From positions 1 to 36,829 of the forward strand of contig JBILVW010000002.1 in assembly GCA_044370205.1 (NCBI GenBank): a stretch of DNA of 36,829 nucleotides. The letters run 5' to 3'. Of the stretch, positions 1,871 to 13,500 are shown in pieces (the stretch's first letter is position 1; each line of letters opens with the position of its first letter). The DNA comes from Pirellulales bacterium. Its GTDB lineage: Bacteria > Planctomycetota > Planctomycetia > Pirellulales > UBA1268. The translations under genes and the position numbers were made by a program. The notes beneath the pieces are model-generated. The model was not told the origin of the DNA. It saw only the letters and a program-made list of their open reading frames with translations, and did no database searches.

Positions 1871-3373
1871 TCACTTCTTCGCAGATGCCGGAATCTTGGC
1901 CACCATCCGCAGCGAGGTGGTGAGTTCCTCGAGCTGCAGCCACGGCCGCAGATACGCGACGGCGTTGTAGCTGCCCGGCGCCCCGGGCACCTCCTCCACC
2001 TTGATCTCCGCCTCGGCCAGCGGGTAACGGGCCTTGATGTCGGCCGACGGCTTCGGATCGGCCGACACGTAGTTGGCGATCCACCGCTTCAGCCAATCCT
2101 CGCAGTCCTGCCGCTCCATGAACGATCCGATCTTGTCGCGGGCGATGCACTTCAGATAGTGGGCGATCCGCGAGGAGGCCATGATGTACGGCAGCCGGGC
2201 CGAGATCGCGGCGTTGGCCGTCGCCTCGGGGCGGTCGTACTTTTTGGCCTTCTGCGCCGTCTGGGCGCCGAAGAACACGGCGTAGTCGGTGTTCTTGTAG
2301 TGGCACAGTGGCAGGAAGCCGAGCTTCGAGAGCTCCGCCTCGCGCCGGTCGGTGATCGCGATCTCCGTGGGGCACTTCAGATCGGTGTCGCCGTCGTCGT
2401 CGGTGAAGATGTGGGCCGGCAGGCCCTCCACCTTGCCACCGTTCTCGGCGCCGCGGATCGCCGTGCACCAGCCCGTCTGGGCGAAGGCGTTGGTGAGCCG
2501 CGTACCCATCACGTAGGCCGTGTTCATCCAGCAGTAGTTGGAGTGGTCGACCTTCTTGGAGTTGCCCTTCGCGTCGAGCTCGACCTCCTCGTAATTGAAC
2601 TCCTCCACCGGCTTGGTCTGGCTGCCGTAGGGGAGCCGGGCCAGCGTCCGCGGCATCGTGAGCACCGCGAACCGGCTGTCGTCGGACTCGCGGAAGCTCC
2701 GCCACTTCGCATAGCTGACGTCGAGGAAGATCTTCTCGAGGTCGCGCGGCTTCGAAAGCTCCTCGAAGCTCTCCATTCCCAAAAGCTCAGCCCCGGCGGC
2801 CGTGACGAATGGGCAGAAGCCGGCCGCCGAAATCTGCGACATCTTCGACAGCAGGTCGATGTCTTCGGGATGGTTGGTGAACTCGTAGTCGCCGATCAGG
2901 GCCGCATAGGGTTCGCCACCCGGCGACCCGAACTCCGCCTCGTAGATCTTCTTGAAGGCCTGGCTCTGGTCGAACTCGACCGCCTTGTCGAGATCCTTGA
3001 ACAGCTCCCGCTTGGACACGTTGAACGCCCGGATCTTGAGCTGGGCGCCCGTCTCGGAGTTCATCACGAGGTGATGCAGGCCCCGCCACGACCCCTCCAG
3101 CTTCTGGAACGAGTCGTGGTGCATGATCGCCGCGAGCTGCTTCGACATCGCGGCATCGATTGCCGCCATGGCCCGGTTGATCGTCTTCGTCACGTTGCGG
3201 TCGAACTGCACCGTACCTTGCAGCGACTGCTCGACGAGAGCGCGGATCAGTTCGTCGCGCCGCGGCTTCTCGACGGCCCGGGGCATCATGCTCGTGATCT
3301 GGTCGAGCAGGCTCGCGCCGGCATCGGTCGTGGTCGTCGCCGCGGCGGATGCGGCCTTCTTTTCAGCGGTCAT
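1871..3373 (-). CDS. tssC: T6SS contractile sheath large subunit TssC (VipB/EvpB family), 500 aa
   Basis: Full-length ORF with classic TssC blocks: [107 protein letters not shown]. It lies directly downstream of tssB. Confidence 0.95.
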
Positions 3374-3415
3374 GCTGGAGTCCCTTCATATGGACGGAGA
3401 GGAATGTGACGCGGA

Positions 3416-3928
3416 TCACTCGGCGCCGGAATCGGAGAGGCCCATCTCGCCGGCCAGCTTCGCAAGCTGGTCGGTATCCTGCAGGATCTTCTCGAGTTCG
3501 CCTTCGAGCCCGTCGGCCCGATCCACCGCCGACAACAGGTCACGGAGGCGGTTTCGCGTCTCGAGCAGTTTCCGCAACGGCTCCACCTGCTCGACCACGC
3601 GGGACGGCTCGAAGTCTTCCATCGAGGAGAATTTCAGCTTGACCGCCATCTCGCTGCCGTCGCCCGCCAGCGTGTTCTCGGCTCGGAACTCCAGCCCCGG
3701 CGTCATCCGCCGCAACACTTCGTCGAAGTTGTCTCGGTCGATGTTGATGAACTTGCGATCCTTGATCGGCTTGAGCGGCTCCGTCGGATTCCCGGAGAAG
3801 TCGCCCATCACGCCGACGACAAACGGCAGTTCCTTGACGACGGTCGCTCCTTCGGTCTCGACATCGTAGGTGATGTGCACCCGCGGCTTCCGCACGCGGT
3901 TGAGCTTTCCATGAACGGATTCGGGCAT
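3416..3928 (-). CDS. tssB: T6SS contractile sheath small subunit TssB (VipA), 170 aa
   Basis: [46 protein letters not shown]... is the typical TssB N-terminus. I trimmed the track ORF (3416..4009) to the ATG at 3926-3928, which has AAGGGG about 8 nt upstream. Confidence 0.93.
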
Positions 3929-4068
3929 GCTGACGACCCCTTGCGGATGAAAGGACTTGGCGAATGGAAGGCGCCGAGGGCCGACTGGAGGTCGAATACC
4001 CCGATGCACGAGCGGTCACGACACGATGCCTGTGTTCTCCGACCGCGACCGCCGCCGAAGCACGCGGA

Positions 4069-5220
4069 TCAGCCGTCGAACGTCAACCCTGCCATCCGTG
4101 AAAGCGATTGCAGCCCCGACTCTTCCTGGATGAGTTCCCGGTAATAGTCGGCTCGCGGCAGCCGCGCCATCCGAACGACGTTCCTCACTTGAGCCGCTAG
4201 CAGGCTGTGGGGATCGTGACGCTCGAAATAGTCGGCCACGGACTCCAGGGTTCGGAGAACATCATTACGGGATGCCTCCCCCGACACAAGTACCCCCGAC
4301 AGAGGGGATGCGATGGGGGGTCCGCCTGCCGATACCGGCTCCGCCTGAGCCGCGTTCGTCGCCGGGGATTCGGCGGCCAATTCCACCACCGCCGCGGGGG
4401 CGAACGTCCGGAGGGCGTTTTCGCACTCTTCGAACAAATCCCGGAGCGGCAGCGTCGGCAGGATCGCCCGGTCCGCCGAGGCGGTCGCGACTGCATCCGC
4501 AAGCGCCTGCCACGCCCCCTGCGCTGCCTGGATGCCCAGGAATACGTCCTGGAGAAATGCGCGGTCAGTCGTGGCGACACCGGCTTCGAACTGCTGCGGC
4601 GAAGTGCCCCCTCGCTGGAGCGCGGTCTGCAGGCGATCGGGATCGTCCACGCCCCGCAATTCGGTGCTGCTCCGCCAGTGGCACAGCCCGAACCGTTCCC
4701 CGTCACGGCCATCCACCAGCGGCACGTGCAGGATCGCGGGCACGAGCAGCCCCTCCGAGTCTTCTCCCGCCAGTCTCACGAGCGGCAGGGCCCGCTCCAT
4801 GGCGATCGCCCGTTCGTCGGCCGGCCCATCTTCCGGATCGGGAATGGGAAACAGTTCTGACCAGTGGCTCTCGACCATGGCCCGCGCCGCGTCACAGCCT
4901 GCCGCGAGGCCATGAAATCCGCTCGTCCGAGCCAAGGCCTCGATGAACGCCGCGGCCGCACCGAGGTCGTGTGACTGGGTCGTCAGCACGGTCACGCACG
5001 TATCCGCCACCTTCGACCAGACCGGCTCCGCGGCCCAGCGATCTTGGGACGGATCCTTATCGGCATCGCGCTCGATGCGCCGCGCCTCGTCCCGGAGTTC
5101 CCGAATGGAGCCCCACGCCGCGCGGCCCGAATCGTCGACGCGGAGATTCACGCCTGCTGGAGCCGCCTCCGATAGCGGCTGCCGGAGGGCTTCGAGGTCA
5201 ACTGCTTGAACCGCAGGCAT
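4069..5220 (-). CDS. tssA: T6SS protein TssA (ImpA N-terminal domain family), 383 aa
   Basis: The N-terminus LRQPLSEAAPAGVNLRVDDSGRAAWGSIRELRDEARRIER fits the ImpA_N pattern (L..PiS...P.G.dLRyd..f..i.e.r). It sits immediately upstream of tssB-tssC. Confidence 0.8.
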   Translation of the reverse strand: MPAVQAVDLEALRQPLSEAAPAGVNLRVDDSGRAAWGSIRELRDEARRIERDADKDPSQDRWAAEPVWSKVADTCVTVLTTQSHDLGAAAAFIEALARTSGFHGLAAGCDAARAMVESHWSELFPIPDPEDGPADERAIAMERALPLVRLAGEDSEGLLVPAILHVPLVDGRDGERFGLCHWRSSTELRGVDDPDRLQTALQRGGTSPQQFEAGVATTDRAFLQDVFLGIQAAQGAWQALADAVATASADRAILPTLPLRDLFEECENALRTFAPAAVVELAAESPATNAAQAEPVSAGGPPIASPLSGVLVSGEASRNDVLRTLESVADYFERHDPHSLLAAQVRNVVRMARLPRADYYRELIQEESGLQSLSRMAGLTFDG

Positions 5221-5272
5221 GACTGATCACATCCTCGGGACAGCCGAACGATACACCCTTCTCAGGTGGGAA

Positions 5273-5301
5273 AGTCTGCCACCGAAAAGGGACGCCGTCA
5301 A
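5273..5301 (-). promoter_or_regulatory. Candidate sigma-70-like promoter for the tssA-tssB-tssC operon
   Basis: The minus strand reads TTGACG (5301-5296), a 17-nt spacer, then CAGACT (5278-5273). This lies in the 127-bp gap between the sigma-factor stop and the tssA ATG. The -10 element is weak. Confidence 0.2.
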
Positions 5302-5347
5302 AACGAACGTCTCTGCACAAGGCGTCTCGATCCGTACGGCTTCGGGG

Positions 5348-6058
5348 TCAGTCGTGCAGGTCGGCAGCCTGGAGGGCTAAGGCCAGTTGGCCCAACGCCC
5401 GCGAATGGAGCCGGCTGGCCCAGGCCTTGCTGATGCCGACCTCGGCCGCCGCCTCGGTGAGCGTCCGCCCCTCGAAATACGTGATCCGCACCAGCGCCGA
5501 CATGTCCGCTGGCAGGGCCGCCACGAGTTCCCTGAGTCGCACCGCCATCTCCCGCCGCATCACGATCGTATCGGGGGATTCGAGGCCGGCATCGGCGACC
5601 TCGGCCTCCGCCCCCCCTTCGCTCCACGACCCCAGGCAGGCCACCGCCAGCGCGCTCGACACGCCCTTGAGCCACGCCCCCTGCCGGTCGATCTCGGTTG
5701 CCGCATCGCCCACGGGCCCGGCGGAGGCATCGGCATCGGCCAACGCCTCGTGGGCCATCCGCTGATAACGGCCCGCCTCGAAGTCGCCCCGATTGAACCA
5801 TCGCATCCGCGACAGACCATCGAGAATCGCGCCCCGCACGCGGTACCAGGCATAGGTGCTGAACTGCCCGCCACGACCGCTATCGAAGTCGCGGGCGGCC
5901 TCGGCAAGTCCAACTTGGCCGTACGACACGAGATCTTCGAGATCCACGTGCGCCGGCAGCCGCTGGTGGATTTTCCAGGCGATCGACCGCACCAGGCCTT
6001 GGCACGACGTGATCAGTTGCTGCCGCTCGGCGGACGCAGGCTGCCCTGAGAGGCTCAT
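5348..6058 (-). CDS. Sigma-70 family sigma factor, group 3 (FliA/WhiG sigma-28-like), 236 aa
   Basis: Region 2 reads DLVSYGQVGLAEAARDFDSGRGGQFSTYAWYRVRGAILDGLSRM, matching the FliA-type pattern ..G.iGL..A...fd...g..F.tYA..rIrGa.lD.lR. Region 4 HTH reads LVRITYFEGRTLTEAAAEVGISKAWASRLHSRALGQL. I chose the ATG at 6056-6058 because it forms an ATGA overlap with the stop of the upstream ORF. The longer track ORF (to 6334) is Arg/Ala-rich shadow. Confidence 0.85.
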   Translation of the reverse strand: MSLSGQPASAERQQLITSCQGLVRSIAWKIHQRLPAHVDLEDLVSYGQVGLAEAARDFDSGRGGQFSTYAWYRVRGAILDGLSRMRWFNRGDFEAGRYQRMAHEALADADASAGPVGDAATEIDRQGAWLKGVSSALAVACLGSWSEGGAEAEVADAGLESPDTIVMRREMAVRLRELVAALPADMSALVRITYFEGRTLTEAAAEVGISKAWASRLHSRALGQLALALQAADLHD

Positions 6059-6495
6059 GGCGACCCCCCCGGGGATCGGGCTTGTGCGACAAGCGCTTCG
6101 AACAGCGACTGCAACCGCAGTGCCGACTGCGGGTCGTCGAGCAGTGACTGGGCGATCCGCTCGACGAGTCGGCGCTGTGCCGCCGGCCCATCGGCGAGCG
6201 CCGCGAGCGCCCGCGGCAGCACGGCAGCCACGAGATCGGCCGCGGTCGCGAGATCGAGCGCCGCAGGCACCCCGCGCACGCGCACCACCGCGAGCAGCCG
6301 CCCGCGATCCTCCTCCGTCAGTACGGCGTGCCACGGCGTGCCGTCGTCCGCCGACGCAAAGGCATCGACCGTCTCGGCCAGGATGCGGGGCAACGCGGCG
6401 GAATCCGCCGCTCCGCCGGCTCTGCCGCCGATGGACTGTGTTTTTCGCGGATCCGGCCCTCGCGCCCCGCCCTGCGAACCGGTTGATGTCGACAT
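6055..6495 (-). CDS. Hypothetical small protein (146 aa), translationally coupled to the sigma factor. No TM helix and no motif I recognise.
   Basis: The ATG at 6493-6495 is preceded by AGGAG with a 5-nt spacer. The track start at 6513 has no SD. The stop TGA (6057-6055) overlaps the sigma-factor ATG (6058-6056). The protein has a Gly/Ala-rich N-terminal part followed by a predicted helical part (LLAVVRVRG...LVERIAQSLLDDPQSALRLQSLFEAL). Confidence 0.55.
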   Translation of the reverse strand: MSTSTGSQGGARGPDPRKTQSIGGRAGGAADSAALPRILAETVDAFASADDGTPWHAVLTEEDRGRLLAVVRVRGVPAALDLATAADLVAAVLPRALAALADGPAAQRRLVERIAQSLLDDPQSALRLQSLFEALVAQARSPGGSP

Positions 6496-6531
6496 TGTCA
6501 CTCCTTCGGGCATCAGCGGCCCGTCATCCCC

Positions 6532-8112
6532 TCAGCCGCGGATCATCCGCCACACCAATGCCGCCGCCAGCCCCGCCAGAACGACGCCGCTCACGATCCA
6601 TAACGCCCGCGCCGCCCGCCCCAAGGCCCGATCGGCGGCCTCGGCCTGCTCCGTCCATTCGATGTCGCCCTGTGCGTCGAGCACCTTCTCGAATACACCG
6701 CGAACAAATCCCCTGCGGTCTGCCGCCGCGCCGCACGCCGCGAGGTAGCAGCCTGACAACAGCGGCAGCACGTCGGTCGATTCCCCATCCACCGCCGTGA
6801 AGGCTCGCCGCAGGAGCACCGTGAGCCGCCCCGCCCACTCGGACCGCAGTCTTGCGACGAGGCCCACGAGATCACGATTGCCCGACTCGTCCAGCACGGC
6901 CTTCGCCCGGAGGAGCCGGCCGAGAATCAGATCCTCGACCATGCCGCAGGCGCGGCTGGCGACGGTGCCGAGCTGGTCGTAGCTCGGCGCGGCGCCGATG
7001 GGAAACCGCTGGCCGAGGCGCGACTGCCGCTCACTCGCGGGCATTCGCCGAATCAGCTCCGCGAAGCCCTTGTCTTCCTCCATGCCGGCCACGAGCACCG
7101 TGACCGGCGCCCGCAGGCCCATCCCCTGGCGGATGCCGGCGAGATCGTCACCGAGCGCGCGGCCGAGCGCCTGGGCATTGCCCCCGTCGGCCCGCAGCAG
7201 CGGCGCAGGCACCAACGCGAGCACTCCGTTGAGCGGAGCGAGTCCACCCCGCTCCCGCCGCACCAGCTCGCAGACGTATTTCAGGCGTTGGGACATGCCC
7301 TCCCGCTCGGCGGGCGAAAGCACCGGTGCTCGAACGGCCGCGACCACGGCGCCTGCCGCGGCCTCGGGTGCGATGGCGTCGATCTGGATCGTGGCGTTGA
7401 CGTCGTAGCCGCCAGCGGAAGCGGCCGGCGCTGCCGGCGCCGCGACGGCGGCCCGCGGCTCCGGATCGGTTTCGGCCGGCAGGGCGACGGCCACCGTGCC
7501 CCGGACATCGTCGGCGGCCACCACCGCCTGCGGCTGAGGGACGGCCGCCCGCGCGGTGCCGCGGGCACCTCCACGGCGCGCGACATCGCTCGACTGACAC
7601 GCCGTGGCGAGGCAGATGAATACCGCCTCCGGACCGCCGTAGACGTGGAGCGCCGCGGCTCCTGCCGGGGAGGCCTGCACGGGCAGTTCCACCGGCGGAT
7701 CCGCGAACAGCTGCTCTTCCTGTTCGTCGGAGGCCGATCCGACAACGAGAAACAGCGGTACATCCGCCAGCACGATGCCCTGGCGACGCAGTTCCGCCAG
7801 CGCCGCATTCCAGGCGGCAAGAATGTCTGGCCAGCGGCTTGCATCCCGCTCGAGCCAGAGCCGCGCCGCCTGATGGACGAGCGCCGGCGTCAAGAGCAGG
7901 AGCACCGCCAGCATGGCCAGCTTCCCCGGCCGCCACCAGGCCTGAAACACCTGCCGCTCACCTCCTACGAGCAACACACCGATCGCCAACAGCACCACGA
8001 CGACTTGAAACAAGCCGACCAGCGCCGCGATCCGAGCCGCGAGCGACAACGAGGCCACGGTTTGCGGCACCTGGTTGACGAACCGCAGGGGAGCCATCAG
8101 CCACTGCATCAC
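6532..8112 (-). CDS. tssM: TssM/IcmF-like T6SS membrane protein, N-terminal (TM1-TM2, cytoplasmic domain, TM3) part only, 526 aa
   Basis: - Two N-terminal hydrophobic helices (LAARIAALVGLFQVVVVLLAIGVLLVGG and LAMLAVLLLLTPALV).
- A cytoplasmic region with TssM-like blocks: VPLFLVVGSASDEQE at the Walker-A position, APLNGVLALVPAPLL, and APVTVLVAGMEEDKGFAELIRRM (compare vYvlvTK.D.l.GF.eFf).
- A final helix ALWIVSGVVLAGLAAALVW, then a stop 6 residues later.
It follows tssL, as in canonical clusters. The start is GTG 8112 or ATG 8109. Confidence 0.72.
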   Translation of the reverse strand: MMQWLMAPLRFVNQVPQTVASLSLAARIAALVGLFQVVVVLLAIGVLLVGGERQVFQAWWRPGKLAMLAVLLLLTPALVHQAARLWLERDASRWPDILAAWNAALAELRRQGIVLADVPLFLVVGSASDEQEEQLFADPPVELPVQASPAGAAALHVYGGPEAVFICLATACQSSDVARRGGARGTARAAVPQPQAVVAADDVRGTVAVALPAETDPEPRAAVAAPAAPAASAGGYDVNATIQIDAIAPEAAAGAVVAAVRAPVLSPAEREGMSQRLKYVCELVRRERGGLAPLNGVLALVPAPLLRADGGNAQALGRALGDDLAGIRQGMGLRAPVTVLVAGMEEDKGFAELIRRMPASERQSRLGQRFPIGAAPSYDQLGTVASRACGMVEDLILGRLLRAKAVLDESGNRDLVGLVARLRSEWAGRLTVLLRRAFTAVDGESTDVLPLLSGCYLAACGAAADRRGFVRGVFEKVLDAQGDIEWTEQAEAADRALGRAARALWIVSGVVLAGLAAALVWRMIRG

Positions 8113-8151
8113 GTTTCACCTCGCTCGCGAGTCATTCCCTGCCGGCCGCCA

Positions 8152-8766
8152 TCACAACACCGCCAGCCCCCACGCCGCCACCACGATACAGGCGGCCGCG
8201 AAGGCGGCCGCCAGGCTGGCCCACACGAGGCTCAAGCGGCCGCTCAGCGGCGGGGCGCCCGAGAGGTCAACCGCGGCATCGGGAAGCGGCGGACGCCCCT
8301 GCCCCACCTTCACGAGCTGCTCCTGCCGCCGCAGCCACAACTCGAGCGGCTGCGGCTGATCACGAAACATCCCGCGGAAGCCGAGGACGACGGCCGTCAT
8401 GAAGGCCTCCAGGGCATCGCGGCTGGCGAGACCAGCCGCCTGCTCAGCCCGGTCGAAGAATGCGGTGGCTCGTTCGCGGGAGCGAAACAGATCGACCTCA
8501 AGCGCATGGTTCTCCCACCATGACTGCCCGTGCCAGGGCAGCTCGACGATCAGCAGTTCGTCAACGAGCGCGGCGAGTGCATACGAGGCGAGCTCCCAGT
8601 CGCGGCTTCGCGCACCGCTCACCCGGGCCGCCGCCCGATCGAACACGCCGCGGATCCGTGCCCGCTCCTGCTCCGGATCGCCGGCCGTGCCGGCCGCGAC
8701 GCGCTCGACGAGATCGATCACCTCCAGGAGCGCCGGATCGAAGGCTGCCGCAAAATCCGGAGACAT
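8152..8766 (-). CDS. tssL: T6SS membrane protein TssL (DotU family), 204 aa, with a C-terminal TM anchor and no peptidoglycan-binding extension
   Basis: DotU-like core: WELASYALAALVDELLIVELPW...WWENHALEVDLFRSRERATAFFDRAEQ...DALEAFMTAVVLGFRGMF. The C-terminal helix is LVWASLAAAFAAACIVVAAWGLAVL. I trimmed the track ORF (to 9408, which overlaps tssK) to the ATG at 8764-8766. Confidence 0.85.
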   Translation of the reverse strand: MSPDFAAAFDPALLEVIDLVERVAAGTAGDPEQERARIRGVFDRAAARVSGARSRDWELASYALAALVDELLIVELPWHGQSWWENHALEVDLFRSRERATAFFDRAEQAAGLASRDALEAFMTAVVLGFRGMFRDQPQPLELWLRRQEQLVKVGQGRPPLPDAAVDLSGAPPLSGRLSLVWASLAAAFAAACIVVAAWGLAVL

Positions 8767-8789
8767 GGAGACGGGGATTCCTGGAGGCG

Positions 8790-10262
8790 TCAGGTGGTCT
8801 GGGGCACGGCGAACAGGGCGAACTCGAGCACCGCGGGATTCCCCTTGTGCGTGACTTCGATGCGCCGGTTTCCGACAAGGGCATCGCGATTGAGCAAGAG
8901 CGTCTCCCGCAGCCGGATCGCCAGGGATTGCGTGTCGCGCACGTCGTTCCAGGCGACGTTTTCCCGGCCGATCTGGTAGTAGAGCCAGCCGCCTTTGTCG
9001 GGTAGCGCCCGCGGCGGCCGATCGAGGGGCAGCAACTGCAGGCCCGGCACGCCCATGCGGAAGAGATGGTCCACCTGCCGCGCACTGCCGAGCTTCCAAT
9101 CGAGTTGCGTGTTGCCGCTCAGGAGGCTGCGGCAGTCTTCCTCCGGGATCTCGCCCCGCAGCACCCCCACGTACCACCGCCAATCGGACTGGAGCCACTT
9201 CGGCTCGAGGGTCACTCCCAGCGATGCGGGCCCGACGCCGGTGAAGTAGCGTTGCTCGTAGGAGAGCGCCGCGACCCGCGACAGCATCCGCTCGATGCGG
9301 TCCTGCACCTCGCGAAAGATCGGCGCGAGGTCGTCGTGATCGTAGACCGGCAGCTCCGGCATCCGGCGCTCGGGCTCGAAGATCGCCAACTGGCCGGCCA
9401 CCCGGCACAGCTCCGTATAGGCCGTGCGCGGATGCACACCGGCCGCGAAGGCGATCGTCCGCAGCGCGGCGTGCGACTCGAGCACCTTCGACAGCATCAC
9501 GAGCCGGTCGAGATCCCCGGGCTCGCTGCTGGAAAATCCGACCTGTCGGCTCACCGCCTGCTCGGCCAGCACCTCCAGCTTGCGACCGAGCAGATCGTAG
9601 ATTGAACGCACGACGCCCCGGCCCAGCGGCTCCCAGGCATCGACCGCCAACGCGGGAGGAAAATAGTCGGGGTCGATCTCGGGCGCCGCCTCACGATTGC
9701 CGGTGCGGCGGATCTGGGCGATGGGCAGCACTTCGAAGCCGGACAGATCCTGGTTGGAGATGAGCAGCCTGACATTCAGCCGCCGAAACTCGATCTCCTG
9801 GTCGTTGCCCCCGCCCGTCTCGTCCTGCAGACTCTGACGCATCGCGGCGTACCGCACGCGGTCGCCAGCCGCCGGTGGCGCGACGTTGGCGCCGCCCGGA
9901 TCGAGTCGCGGCACCGCCAGATAGACGCGGACGGTATCGTCCACGGCCAGCGCGTCGTCGAGCGCCGCATGCAATTTGGAGAACGTGCCCACGGCACGCT
10001 CGAGACTGACGCGATCGGGCCCCTCCCCCGGCTCGAGCCAGACGATCGTGCCGTCACGGAGGATGGCCCGGCACGCGGAGATCTGAATCTGACGATTGGC
10101 CAGGGCAGTGGGATCGAGTTCCAGCTTCACGATCCCGTAGCCGGACGGGTCGGCGGCCGCCTGCCGCAGCGCGGCCTGTTCGGCCCAGTGACGATCGCTC
10201 GCCTGGAAGTGGTGCGGGCGGAGGAACATGCCCTCCGACCAGTGAACGGGTAGGTATCGCAT
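8790..10262 (-). CDS. tssK: T6SS baseplate protein TssK, 490 aa
   Basis: MRYLPVHWSEGMFLRPHHFQASDRH... is the hallmark TssK N-terminus. I trimmed the track ORF (to 10436) to the ATG at 10260-10262. Confidence 0.92.
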   Translation of the reverse strand: MRYLPVHWSEGMFLRPHHFQASDRHWAEQAALRQAAADPSGYGIVKLELDPTALANRQIQISACRAILRDGTIVWLEPGEGPDRVSLERAVGTFSKLHAALDDALAVDDTVRVYLAVPRLDPGGANVAPPAAGDRVRYAAMRQSLQDETGGGNDQEIEFRRLNVRLLISNQDLSGFEVLPIAQIRRTGNREAAPEIDPDYFPPALAVDAWEPLGRGVVRSIYDLLGRKLEVLAEQAVSRQVGFSSSEPGDLDRLVMLSKVLESHAALRTIAFAAGVHPRTAYTELCRVAGQLAIFEPERRMPELPVYDHDDLAPIFREVQDRIERMLSRVAALSYEQRYFTGVGPASLGVTLEPKWLQSDWRWYVGVLRGEIPEEDCRSLLSGNTQLDWKLGSARQVDHLFRMGVPGLQLLPLDRPPRALPDKGGWLYYQIGRENVAWNDVRDTQSLAIRLRETLLLNRDALVGNRRIEVTHKGNPAVLEFALFAVPQTT

Positions 10263-10351
10263 ACCGTGCGCACCGTGCTGAGCCTGGCGTCGCAACCCGA
10301 CGGCCGAGGAAGTGACGGCCTGAGAGCCGTAGAAATCCAGTTTGCAGGCCC

Positions 10352-10370
10352 CCCACAGTAAACCCACAGT
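10352..10370. promoter_or_regulatory. Tandem direct repeat CCCACAGT-N3-CCCACAGT (11-bp phasing) in the tssK / giant-protein divergent control region
   Basis: Exact 8-mers at 10352-10359 and 10363-10370. They lie about 90-108 bp upstream of the tssK ATG and about 160 bp upstream of the plus-strand ATG at 10528. Confidence 0.3.
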
Positions 10371-10460
10371 CGCCCCCGGTAAAGGGGCCACTGCCGAGGG
10401 TGTGTCTCCCTTGACAGATGCCACGCCCCGTCCCAAAACACGGTTTCTCTCGCTCGTGTC

Positions 10461-10481
10461 GCGTCAGGGGAGTCCTGACGC
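10461..10481 (+). promoter_or_regulatory. Perfect 8-bp stem / 5-nt loop hairpin in the likely 5' leader of the first giant gene
   Basis: GCGTCAGG (10461-10468), loop GGAGT, then CCTGACGC (10474-10481). It ends 47 nt upstream of the ATG at 10528. A perfect TTGACA hexamer lies at 10411-10416, but it has no convincing -10 element. Confidence 0.3.
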
Positions 10482-10527
10482 CGATTCAGCCGGCGGCCCG
10501 ACCGGGAGCCGGCCATGGAGTTCCGGC

Positions 10528-13500
10528 ATGCAGAAGCCTTCCGGTTCCTCGCGCGGTTCTCGCCCCGGGGAACGTCGGACTCGCTGGAAAGCGAACCCGG
10601 CTCCTGTAGCCGGCCCGCGCTCGCGACTTCCAGCGAGGCTTGCCTGGACCGCCGCGAGCATCGGCCTGATCGCGGCCGTGGGGATGCTCGTTGTTCCGCC
10701 GCTGTTCATGTGGCACGCGGCCGTCGTCCAACTCACCATCGACGAGTACGACCTGGGCGTGCTTTCGGCCCTGCCGTTCAGCGACCGCGACACCGACGCC
10801 GTCGCCGCGGCAGTCGCCGGGCGGCTGGCGCCGACGATGAATCGGTCCGCCCTGCGGCTCGAGCGGAGTGATACGGCGGCGGCGCTCCGCGAACAGCTGC
10901 GACCTCTCGTCGGCGCGCTGCCGCTGCGGCCCCGGGATGTGCTCGTGGCCGTCGTGCGTGCCCAGTGCGGGATCGCCGGTGCGGCCGACGGCGCTCCGTT
11001 TGCCGGTGTGTTCGCCAGCGACGCTCGGCCTGCCGACCCACTGCCCGAGGAACTGGTCGCATGTCGCGACCTCTTCGCCGCATTCGCCGCCGCGCCCAGC
11101 CGCACCACGCTCGTCGCCGTCGACTTCGGTGATCTGCGGTGGGATCCCCGGCTGGCAGCCGCCGGCGGCATCGTGCCCGCCTTGCTCGACGTGGAGTGCC
11201 GGCGTCCGCTCGCCGAGGATGCGGCCGGCGGCCGGCGTGACCGCGACTGCTGGGTGCTGGGCTCGCACGACACGCTCGAGTTTTCGGCGGTCAATCTGGC
11301 CGCCCGACGCAGTCTCTTTTCGCGGGCGATCGAACTTGCGCTCGCCGGCGCCGCCGACGACCCCCGGTGGGCCGCGGCGGGCGGCGATGGCGATGGCGTC
11401 GTCGAACTCGACGAACTGGCACGATTCACGGCGGCGTGGACGAGCCGCTGGGCGCGGGAGGAAAGCGCCGGCGAGTGGGATCAGCGCCCCGTGCTGTGGA
11501 AGCTCGGCACGGGCCGCGTGCCGCTCGACCAGGTGCCGCCCGGCATCGCCATCATTCGCACCACCGACCGGCGGCCACCGGTCGTGGCGATCGTCGGCAG
11601 CGAAGGGCAGGCCGAGGCGGACCGCGCGGCCGCCGAACCGGCCGCACAGTCCGCGTCAGGTGAGCCGGCGGCGGCTCCTGCCGAGGCAGCCCCGGCCACG
11701 TCGACTCAGCCCACGCCCCAGCCACAGGTCGTGCAGCCCGATGTGCGCGCGATCATCGCTCGACTCGCCGCCGCATCCGAGTCGGAGCCGAGCCCGCTCG
11801 ATTCCATTCCGCATCTCTGGCGAGACGTCGATTCCCTCTCCGCGGCGGTGTCGGCCACGGTGCCGGATGGATCGACGCTGGCCGAGCGCGCCGCACTCCT
11901 CGACCGTCGGCTCGGGATTGGTCTCGATCGGTTCGTGGCCGGGGCCGCCAGTGCCGGTGATGGCGCGGCCGAGGTCACGAAACAGCTCGTGGCGGCCTCG
12001 CGCGCGGTGAGTGCCGCAGGCTTTTCAGCAGCCTGGCGAAATGCGCCGCCCCCGGTGCGGGCAGCACTCGCCTCCCGCAACCGCGCGGTCGAGCTGGCCT
12101 GGTCGACGGCGACGTGGCTCGGGCAGGCTTCGGGCGGTACGCGGGCCTCGACGCATCTGCGAGGCCTGAACCTGCTGCTCGAACGGATCAGGGCGCTGAA
12201 TGCGGCGCTCGACCGCCTGGCCGACCGCCGCGCGGACGGCGACGACGGCTTCGCGGACCTCGACCGCCAGCGAGTCGCCTTGGGGGCGGCCGTCGGCGAA
12301 CTCGCCGCGGCAGTCGATGCCTCGATCGAGGAGTTGCTCGAACGGTTTGCCCGGCCCGGCCCCCGGCCGGTGGCCGAGTTGCGTTGGCTGGCAGCGTCGC
12401 GACTCCCGTCGGCGGCCCAGTTCTCCCGCATCAGCACCGCCCTCGCGCCGCCGGCTCCTCCCGCAACCGGGTCCACTGGTGGGCCGCAAGCAGTCGACCA
12501 GGCGCTGGAATTGAAGGAGCCGGCGCCCGCCGTGCCCGCGAACCGCCTCATCGACCGACTGGCGTGGCGCAACCTCGCGGATCATGCCGATGCGTTTCGG
12601 CTCATGCTGCAGTCGTTCGGACCGCTCGGCCCACAGTTCGAGACACTCGTCGCCGGCGTCGGCACTGCGATCTCTGGATTGACCGCGGCTGCCGAGGATC
12701 CGCCGCGGGCGGCCGACGCGGCGGCAAGGCTCGGCCTGCGGATGGCCGCAGCGCTGGCTGCAGTGCCGGGCGAGATCGATGTGGTGACTCGGAGCCGGTC
12801 AGGCGCGGCCGGCGACCCGTCCCGCATGATCGATGCCTTGACGCGGCTTGCCGATCCGCGTGACGCCACGCGCATCCGCCCTGATGCCCGCGGCTGGGCT
12901 CCGGCTGTCCGCCCCCAGACCGTGCTCGCGCTCAACGTGACGGCCCGCGAGCTCACACTCGACGGCGACCGCCCGCAACGGGTCGCAGTGGCACTCGCAT
13001 CGGCCGCTCCGTTCCCGCCGGCCGCAGCCCTGCGGCTGGACTTCGATCCTGCGCTCATCCGAGTGGTGGCCGTCGGTGGCGACTCGATCACTCCGGGCAC
13101 GGCGTTCTCCCCCGGGGCCCTGGGCATGCGCGATCGCGGCCTGTTCGACGTCACGGCGCGCGGTCGGGCAGCGGGTGGCGCAGACGGTGGCCCCCCGACG
13201 GCCACGCTCACCTGCACACTCGAGGTCGGCCGACGCCGCGAACGAGCCTCGATCACGTTCGATCTGCCCGTTGTCGAGCGGATAGCGATCGCCGTCCGCG
13301 GACCGGCAGGCACGGTCGAAAAAGGTGTGCCCGATGCGTGGCTGACCATGCCGCTCGATCCGCTGACCACCGGCAGCGCGGAAGGGAACCGCAGCATCTC
13401 GCTTCGTCCGTTCCCGGGGCACACGACGGGCTGGGAGCTTTCGCTCGTGAACCGGACGAAACACGCTCGGCGGGTGAGCATCGAATTGGTTTCCTTCGCC

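Follow-up and report, generated by a model that had tools for sequence, protein, structure and literature searches.

A conserved gene pair encoding a FliA/WhiG-like sigma factor and a small protein in the type VI secretion clusters of Planctomycetota

Introduction

To our knowledge, the regulation of type VI secretion systems (T6SS) is known almost only from Proteobacteria, by way of sigma-54 with VasH/Sfa, threonine phosphorylation, and the sigma factor EcfK with PknS. The EcfK gene lies in the T6SS cluster. Here, we analyze a pair of genes from a Pirellulales bacterium (GenBank assembly GCA_044370205.1, contig JBILVW010000002.1, positions 1 to 36,829; we call this whole stretch of 36,829 nucleotides the window). 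One gene encodes a sigma factor, the other a small protein that we name the partner, and both are embedded in a T6SS gene cluster. The pair is a conserved, translationally coupled two-gene module of Planctomycetota, inherited as a unit and usually found immediately before tssA within the T6SS cluster, and it points to a dedicated transcription switch for the T6SS. The regulatory module is real and conserved, and so far apparently undescribed: full-text literature searches on the T6SS of Planctomycetota and its sigma factors return no description of it.

The nearest precedent is EcfK-PknS, another case in which an alternative sigma factor is attached to a T6SS. As the passages on EcfK in two sources describe it, this sigma factor of Xanthomonas citri controls the T6SS and is activated by the kinase PknS; it is a group-4 extracytoplasmic function (ECF) sigma factor, phosphorylated by the transmembrane Hanks kinase PknS, and it acts via the AraC regulator TagK (PMC13147305, PMC13584744). 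Unlike EcfK, the sigma factor of the window is FliA/WhiG-like and comes with a small soluble partner, and a kinase is not seen at most loci. Another described case is sigma-54 with the enhancer-binding proteins VasH/Sfa2, presented in the relevant passages of a review as cluster-encoded transcription control of the T6SS in Proteobacteria (PMC13584744). What the proteobacterial cluster supplies is an activator for a global sigma factor, whereas here the cluster supplies the sigma factor itself. The transcription regulators named in those parts of this 2026 review of T6SS accessory factors are Sfa2/VasH, TagK, VirAG and EcfK-PknS, and the same parts mention neither FliA nor Planctomycetes (PMC13584744). 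A preliminary description of the window knew of no dedicated group-3 sigma factor inside a core T6SS operon. No sigma factor of this kind is listed there, but for a sigma factor encoded in a T6SS cluster there is a precedent, EcfK-PknS.

By sequence, the best relatives of the sigma factor over its full length are FliA, WhiG and SigD, which have a similar size (about 230-250 amino acids). Those sigma factors are also paired with a small protein, partly disordered or helical (FlgM, RsiG), and each serves a single envelope nanomachine or developmental programme, as we infer for the sigma factor of the window. The partner is unrelated to FlgM, has no detectable match to solved anti-sigma factors, and is encoded by a gene that overlaps the sigma gene. 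The order and tight coupling of the two genes resemble those of rsbW-sigB and spoIIAB-sigF, where the gene for a group-3 sigma factor directly follows that for the anti-sigma factor. RsbW and SpoIIAB, however, are kinases of the HATPase fold that work with anti-anti-sigma partners; the partner described here lacks such a domain, and we noticed no STAS gene in the vicinity.

Results

The sigma gene and its partner are a conserved pair

A word-indexed protein search finds more than 1400 homologues of the sigma factor, and all the named taxa amongst them are planctomycetal (Pirellulales, Tepidisphaeraceae, Planctomycetia). A species-level scan (one genome per species, using family-specific peptide patterns such as G[IV]SK[AS]WASR followed by tblastn confirmation) reports 574 confirmed sigma matches. 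The best 80 of these 574 have planctomycetal titles (Pirellulales, Planctomycetaceae, Phycisphaerae, Fuerstiella, Kuenenia and others) except for one, a metagenome-assembled genome labelled Nealsonbacteria, and they include the cultured Thalassoglobus neptunius KOR42. Counts of loci given below refer to a set of 85 non-redundant loci (86 for the sigma-28 pattern search).

Three loci with 75%, 57% and 52% sigma identity all have one gene order, with a small open reading frame (ORF) that overlaps the sigma gene by 4 nucleotides (nt), and they continue past sigma with tssA, tssB, tssC, a second tssC, impE, tssE, tssF, tssG and clpV. This synteny is kept down to about 45% sigma identity. A hidden Markov model of the partner, iterated from an alignment of distant loci, matches the ORF immediately upstream of sigma in 83 of the 85 loci. 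Because the gene order of the window recurs in 83 of 85 independent loci, it is not due to chance.

The preliminary description took the ATGA shared by the partner stop and the sigma start to indicate coupling of the sigma gene to the 146-amino-acid ORF, and this arrangement is the prevailing one. The 4-nt overlap is found in 56 of the 85 loci (as ATGA in 45, GTGA in 10 and TTGA in 1), 8 loci have an 11-nt overlap, 19 have other short gaps or overlaps, and in the last 2 the small gene is absent. The strong Shine-Dalgarno sequence reported for the ORF is also present (Table 1).

Searches with tblastn using the T6SS proteins of the window place tssA-tssB-tssC directly downstream of sigma in about 70 of the 85 loci, belonging to several orders. 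The genes tssK, tssL and the short tssM-like gene (tssM') are upstream of the pair in many loci, and there is another set of loci (Fuerstiella and some Planctomycetaceae) in which tssK is divergently transcribed. There are also cases in which the pair is found without the cluster around it: in loci L010, L015 and L032 the two genes are still together amongst housekeeping genes outside a T6SS cluster, and in the complete genome of Caulifigura coniformis Pan44 (CP036271.1, locus L086) the pair is a two-gene unit of its own beside the T6SS cluster, with Pan44_38520 as the partner gene.

The sigma factor is a divergent relative of FliA and WhiG

The sigma factor has 236 amino acids counted from its ATG. 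Pfam finds Sigma70_r2 (PF04542) at residues 15-87 (1.8e-12) and Sigma70_r4 (PF04545) at residues 180-225 (3.2e-07). Regions 2 and 4, which had been described as intact, are thus both detected by Pfam, and they are both present in an AlphaFold (AF2) model, which places the protein in the sigma-70 family. The model, built with 23 orthologues, has sigma2 at residues 8-83 and sigma4 at residues 162-231, mostly with a predicted local distance difference test (pLDDT) score of 80-97. Residues 90-145 are modelled as two long helices with a pLDDT of only 55-66, followed by a disordered linker; Pfam does not detect Sigma70_r3 in this protein.

The top NCBIfam model is FliA_WhiG (TIGR02479), with 102.1 bits against a cut-off of 189.6. 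Although Pfam does not detect region 3, the alignment to TIGR02479 is continuous (model positions 2-223 of 224). Against the FliA, WhiG and sigma-28 equivalogs listed in NCBIfam, the sigma factor always scores far under the respective cut-off, and the only NCBIfam model whose cut-off it passes is the generic sigma70-ECF superfamily model. We rejected an ECF (group 4) identity on the 85-amino-acid segment between regions 2 and 4 and on the model scores, in which the top specific models are FliA/WhiG. Against the PDB, the profile of the sigma family matches WhiG (6pfj, 1e-34) and FliA (9wsf, 6pmi and 1rp3, 1e-31 to 1e-27), with SigA as the next group at 1e-15; taking models and structures together, the FliA/WhiG matches are full-length with E of 1e-21 to 1e-35. 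The sequence of the window protein taken singly also finds WhiG and FliA as its top PDB entries. The FliA/WhiG-like affinity proposed in the preliminary description is therefore borne out by both the NCBIfam and the PDB profile matches, but the label of sigma-28 type is not, given the sub-threshold score and a recognition helix that differs.

Features that are constant in the family set it apart from FliA. The region 4.2 helix, invariant in the family, reads GISKAWASRLH in this sigma factor and GVSESRVSQLH in FliA, and the region 2.3 segment is YA(Y/W)YR(I/V)RG in the family versus YAGIRIRG or YAITRIRG in FliA and WhiG, so that the aromatic pair YY or WY takes the place of GI or IT. Because residues of both regions differ from those of FliA, we expect a promoter specificity unlike that of sigma-28. 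Altogether, the sequence comparisons identify the protein as a divergent FliA/WhiG-like group-3 sigma factor of a T6SS-linked family of Planctomycetota.

Five homologues (P0030, P0032, P0033, P0034 and P0042, with 329-342 amino acids) have an unusual sigma architecture, in which the whole region 2 is duplicated in tandem and followed by a single region 4. The extra part of these proteins is the duplicated region 2 and not the partner, and we discarded the idea that they are fusions of the small protein with sigma. Many sigma homologues (P0004-P0115) are named "RNA polymerase sigma factor for flagellar operon FliA" by pipelines of the Joint Genome Institute (JGI). For T6SS-linked sigma factors, this naming is probably a systematic mis-annotation.

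The partner belongs to a large family of small acidic helical proteins

The partner has 146 amino acids, and the frame stays open as far as an alternative ATG at 6513, which would make it 152 amino acids long. A direct protein search with the partner finds only 12 close relatives. Distant syntenic ORFs can still be aligned to it, and they have a conserved C-terminal motif, IAxTLxDDPxSxxRLxxLW. An exhaustive search of 1.84 billion representatives with the partner profile results in 800 clusters (at 50% identity) with E<=1e-3, of which 575 have E<=1e-10. Nearly all of the 150 family members listed have 100-150 amino acids, with the domain reaching the C-terminus. We dismissed two apparent exceptions: P0299 (432 amino acids), the sole long member amongst the representatives, is an ORF that was called too long and has a spurious N-terminus, and a partner-TssM' fusion in L006 is a frame artefact, a long open frame in high-GC DNA.

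No Pfam or NCBIfam model matches the family, even at E<=1 over 36 diverse members, and the partner profile has no significant match in the PDB (best E 0.11). In the AF2 model of the partner (55 sequences, pLDDT 65), disorder extends over residues 1-33 and seven helices make up the remainder; Foldseek reports no match to this model at E<1. By these comparisons, the partner represents a new protein family without a known fold. The conserved domain of about 100 amino acids is acidic, with a mean net charge of -4.4 and 92% of the members negative, and no stretch hydrophobic enough for a transmembrane helix is found in the family. Lacking a transmembrane segment and being acidic, with a disordered N-terminus and a helical body, the partner fits a soluble sigma-binding protein. 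As for specific anti-sigma families, none of the 36 diverse members matches FlgM (PF04316), even at E<=1, in agreement with the preliminary description, which saw no similarity to FlgM. The HxxxCxxC zinc-binding anti-sigma domain of the RsrA/ChrR type is not found in the partner either, which has no Cys, one His and no Pfam match.

The partner evolves faster than the sigma factor: mean p-distances are 0.70 for the partner, 0.51 for sigma, 0.38 for TssB and 0.34 for TssC. In pairwise distances, the protein that the partner follows most closely is sigma (r 0.63, partial r 0.31); the positive control, TssB with TssC, has a partial r of 0.57. The partner-sigma signal is weak and not specific, because sigma distances also correlate with those of TssA (partial r 0.46).

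Promoter-like elements are specific to clades

The sigma-28 site TAAA-N15-GCCGATAA, put forward in the preliminary description as a possible shared site of the locus, is absent from the window and from the T6SS spacers of related loci. The pattern TAAA-N13-17-CCGATA has 0 matches in the window; four of the 86 loci contain it, in every case on the strand that does not encode sigma and, judged by the coordinates, outside the T6SS intergenic spacers.

A different element is found in the 127-nt spacer between sigma and tssA of the window. In the alignment of this spacer with those of the three loci nearest to the window (L001, L006 and L007, with 74-78% sigma identity), the sole conserved block is TTTTGAC-N11-TCG(G/A)(T/A)G(G/C)CA(G/C)ACTT. 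The block can also be read as TTGACN-N17-CA(G/C)ACT, which appears twice in the window, where 0.06 occurrences are expected, once in the sigma-tssA spacer, and which is found at the same place in the three related loci. This clade-specific footprint upstream of tssA is a candidate target of the sigma factor. We rejected a sigma-54 reading of its GGCA(G/C)AC part, as the GG-to-GC distance does not have the -24/-12 spacing when inspected by eye. A second element, CTTTAC-N15-GTTTAC, is found upstream of tssK and is conserved only in the window, L001 and L006, with one match in the window versus 0 expected.

For the phylum as a whole, we used k-mer enrichment, a Gibbs sampler, dyad counting and a set of 345 upstream sequences, and found nothing beyond the contribution of closely related loci. 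GCAACAC is about 10-fold enriched in sigma-tssA spacers, yet no more than 5 of 70 contain it. By eye, the sequence upstream of tssK looks sigma-70-like in several cases. A simple scan of positions 3300-10800 of the window reports no sigma-70-type promoter and terminators at chance level, and Rfam has no match to the spacers at E<=1.

Individual loci have elements of their own. In Caulifigura coniformis Pan44, GAAAT(T/C)CACGCAAC-N17-CAGAC(A/C)AT can be seen by eye in the sequence preceding hcp as well as in that preceding tssA (L086 14779-14998 and 18292-18640). Its CAGAC core recalls the CAGACT footprint of the window, and there is an additional CCAGACAAT closer to tssA. In L041, an 8-nt unit (CACCTGACA / CACCCGACA) repeated in a long tandem array fills the sigma-tssA spacer, and in L035 this spacer has a 22-nt repeat (GATCGCCGGTCGCGCCAAATCG) in about four copies. 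Finally, L026, L029, L037 and L050 (Fuerstiella and a Planctomycetaceae locus) have a direct repeat with a 9-nt period, TGAACA-N3-TGAACA. It is found immediately before tssA as well as in the region between the divergent tssK and partner genes, and it may be the binding site of another regulator.

The T6SS cluster of the window

The window has 69% G+C. Its T6SS cluster reads, on the minus strand, tssK, tssL, tssM-like, partner, sigma, tssA, tssB, tssC, tssC (Table 1), so the pair is situated between tssM and tssA inside the core cluster, as originally described, with TssA and TssM-like neighbours identified. The genes of the T6SS-i core are all found around the pair: TssA, TssB, TssC, TssK, TssL and TssM, the last one in a short form. 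The neighbour originally called tssM is TssM-like in its IcmF-related_N domain, but it is a short form that lacks the periplasmic portion with which TssM normally extends to the outer membrane. This short form is upstream of the pair in many planctomycetal loci; L004 has instead a 1490-amino-acid TssM together with TagF. Most upstream in the cluster, tssK is probably the first gene of a tssK-L-M'-partner-sigma transcription unit. Essentially all related loci have kept the tandem tssC pair, metagenome loci without sigma included.

Flagellar genes flanking the locus, which in the preliminary description would have spoken for a flagellar sigma factor, do not appear: neither the window nor the related loci whose gene tables were examined have flagellar genes or domains. 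The rest of the window has three giant ORFs and housekeeping genes (ThrRS, GlnA, a ROK regulator and an aldose epimerase). The first giant ORF is conserved and divergent from tssK in L001, and it may belong to the T6SS locus.

Table 1. Positions of the sigma-partner pair, the T6SS genes and other elements in the window.
Feature	Position	Strand	Evidence or remark
Sigma factor gene, 236 aa from ATG	5348..6058 (6058->5348)	minus	Pfam r2 + r4, NCBIfam, PDB matches
Small partner gene, 146 aa	6055..6495 (6495->6055)	minus	ORF; homologue directly upstream of sigma in 83/85 loci
ATGA stop/start overlap, partner/sigma	6055..6058	minus	sequence read directly
Shine-Dalgarno AAGGAG	6501..6506	minus	sequence read directly; 5 nt before partner ATG (6493-6495)
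Promoter-like footprint TTGACG-N17-CAGACT (wider block TTTTGAC-N11-TCGGTGGCAGACTT)	5273..5301	minus	spacer alignment
Conserved element CTTTAC-N15-GTTTAC upstream of tssK	10358..10384	minus	divergent region shared with giant ORF
tssK	8790..10436	minus	Pfam T6SS_VasE, 8.9e-80
tssL (DotU)	8152..8784 (start coordinate approximate)	minus	Pfam DotU; L001 orthologue 204 aa
Short tssM-like gene, 526 aa	6532..8112	minus	IcmF-related_N domain only; C-terminal end is a predicted transmembrane helix
tssA, first gene past sigma	4069..5220	minus	ImpA_N; TIGR03363 176.6 bits (cut-off 160.85 exceeded)
tssB	3416..4009	minus	Pfam VipA
tssC paralogue 1, 500 aa	1871..3373	minus	Pfam VipB + VipB_2
tssC paralogue 2, 546 aa	193..1833	minus	Pfam VipB + VipB_2
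Giant ORF, 1644 aa	10342-15276	plus	Pfam: C-terminal CarboxypepD_reg only
Giant ORF, 496 aa	15301-16791	plus	no Pfam domain
Giant ORF, 1727 aa	16736-21919	plus	no Pfam domain

Discussion

We propose, with moderate confidence, that the sigma factor and its small, acidic, helical and cytoplasmic partner are one regulatory module of Planctomycetota in which sigma drives T6SS promoters and the partner gates sigma. The sigma factor would direct RNA polymerase to T6SS promoters, most likely to that of the tssA operon immediately downstream, with the TTGAC-N17-CA(G/C)ACT element of its clade. The partner would bind sigma and keep it inactive, or otherwise gate it, and a signal tied to T6SS need or assembly would free it. 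Because the sigma gene sits in the T6SS operon, activation of sigma would feed back positively on the T6SS. Our best guess for the partner is that it is the cognate regulator of sigma, most likely an anti-sigma factor or a sigma-binding protein. What suggests an anti-sigma factor is the strict pairing, the coupling, a gene order like that of rsbW-sigB and spoIIAB-sigF, and the acidity, fast evolution and disordered tail of the protein.

Several results weigh against this proposal. No anti-sigma family (FlgM, zinc-binding domain or RsbW/SpoIIAB) resembles the partner, so the anti-sigma label comes only from context. There are two loci (L077 and L081) in which sigma appears without the partner. 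No motif upstream of tssA or of other T6SS genes extends across the phylum, and the footprint of the window has a good sigma-70-type -35 box that a housekeeping sigma factor could read. We also performed the reverse test, starting from metagenome loci anchored on TssB (L093-L166), of which 34 have at least 2.6 kb upstream of tssB. Only 3 of these 34 have the pair and 31 do not, the host taxon of these loci not being assigned. Many of the TssB-anchored loci have the architecture tssA-tssB-tssC1-tssC2-impE-tssE-tssF-tssG, and since the pair can be missing from clusters built in this way, this type of T6SS does not need it. The pair looks like a lineage-specific addition to T6SS clusters. Several of the TssB-anchored loci have a divergent clpV upstream of tssA in place of the pair.

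The partner may have a role other than that of an inhibitor. It could be a chaperone, a positive co-factor or a second subunit of sigma, or else a T6SS accessory protein whose only tie to sigma is the operon. We find such roles unlikely, but there is evidence in their favor. Besides the missing similarity to anti-sigma families, co-production at a fixed ratio from overlapping frames would suit an obligate partner equally well, and sigma distances correlate better with those of TssA than with those of the partner. A second subunit seems uncalled for, as regions 2 and 4 of the sigma factor are complete and it needs no complementing subunit; a purely structural T6SS role agrees poorly with the cases in which the pair stays together away from T6SS genes; and the two loci with sigma alone also count against such roles.

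The preliminary description speculated about a checkpoint like that of FlgM, in which the partner is an anti-sigma factor exported by the firing T6SS so that its secretion frees sigma. The module is indeed inside a secretion cluster, and a size of about 13-15 kDa, solubility and a disordered N-terminus would in general be compatible with loading into Hcp. Against it, the partner has neither sequence nor fold similarity to FlgM, no link to Hcp, VgrG or PAAR is seen, and there are no fusions amongst the approximately 800 partner clusters; we regard this checkpoint as improbable. Much the same low probability goes to the broader version in which T6SS activity lowers the level of an anti-sigma partner, either by Hcp/spike export or by capture in the assembling TssA/TssM' complex. 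If that were the case, firing or assembly of the T6SS would release sigma and re-induce the T6SS genes, which would be a checkpoint of the FlgM-FliA type evolved independently for a contractile injection system.

Finally, that the gene is an ordinary flagellar FliA or a general stress sigma factor adjoining T6SS genes without regulating them, as the JGI name of its homologues and its closest characterised relatives FliA/WhiG could suggest, is very unlikely because of the gene context (T6SS genes and, at the loci examined, no flagellar ones), the sub-threshold FliA/WhiG score, the altered -35 recognition helix, and the missing sigma-28 consensus sites.

The sigma-partner module is a testable candidate for the control of the T6SS across a whole, poorly studied phylum. 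It can be tested directly, because there are cultured carriers (Caulifigura coniformis Pan44 and Thalassoglobus neptunius KOR42) and published genetic tools for Planctomycetota. The module adds a FliA/WhiG-derived subfamily of sigma factors, currently labelled "flagellar FliA" by annotation pipelines, and a partner family of about 800 clusters whose fold is not known. Chlamydial sigma-28 is the first known case in the Planctomycetes-Verrucomicrobia-Chlamydiae superphylum of a sigma-28-type factor in a non-flagellar programme, and the sigma factor described here would be the second case in that superphylum of such a factor serving a non-flagellar programme.

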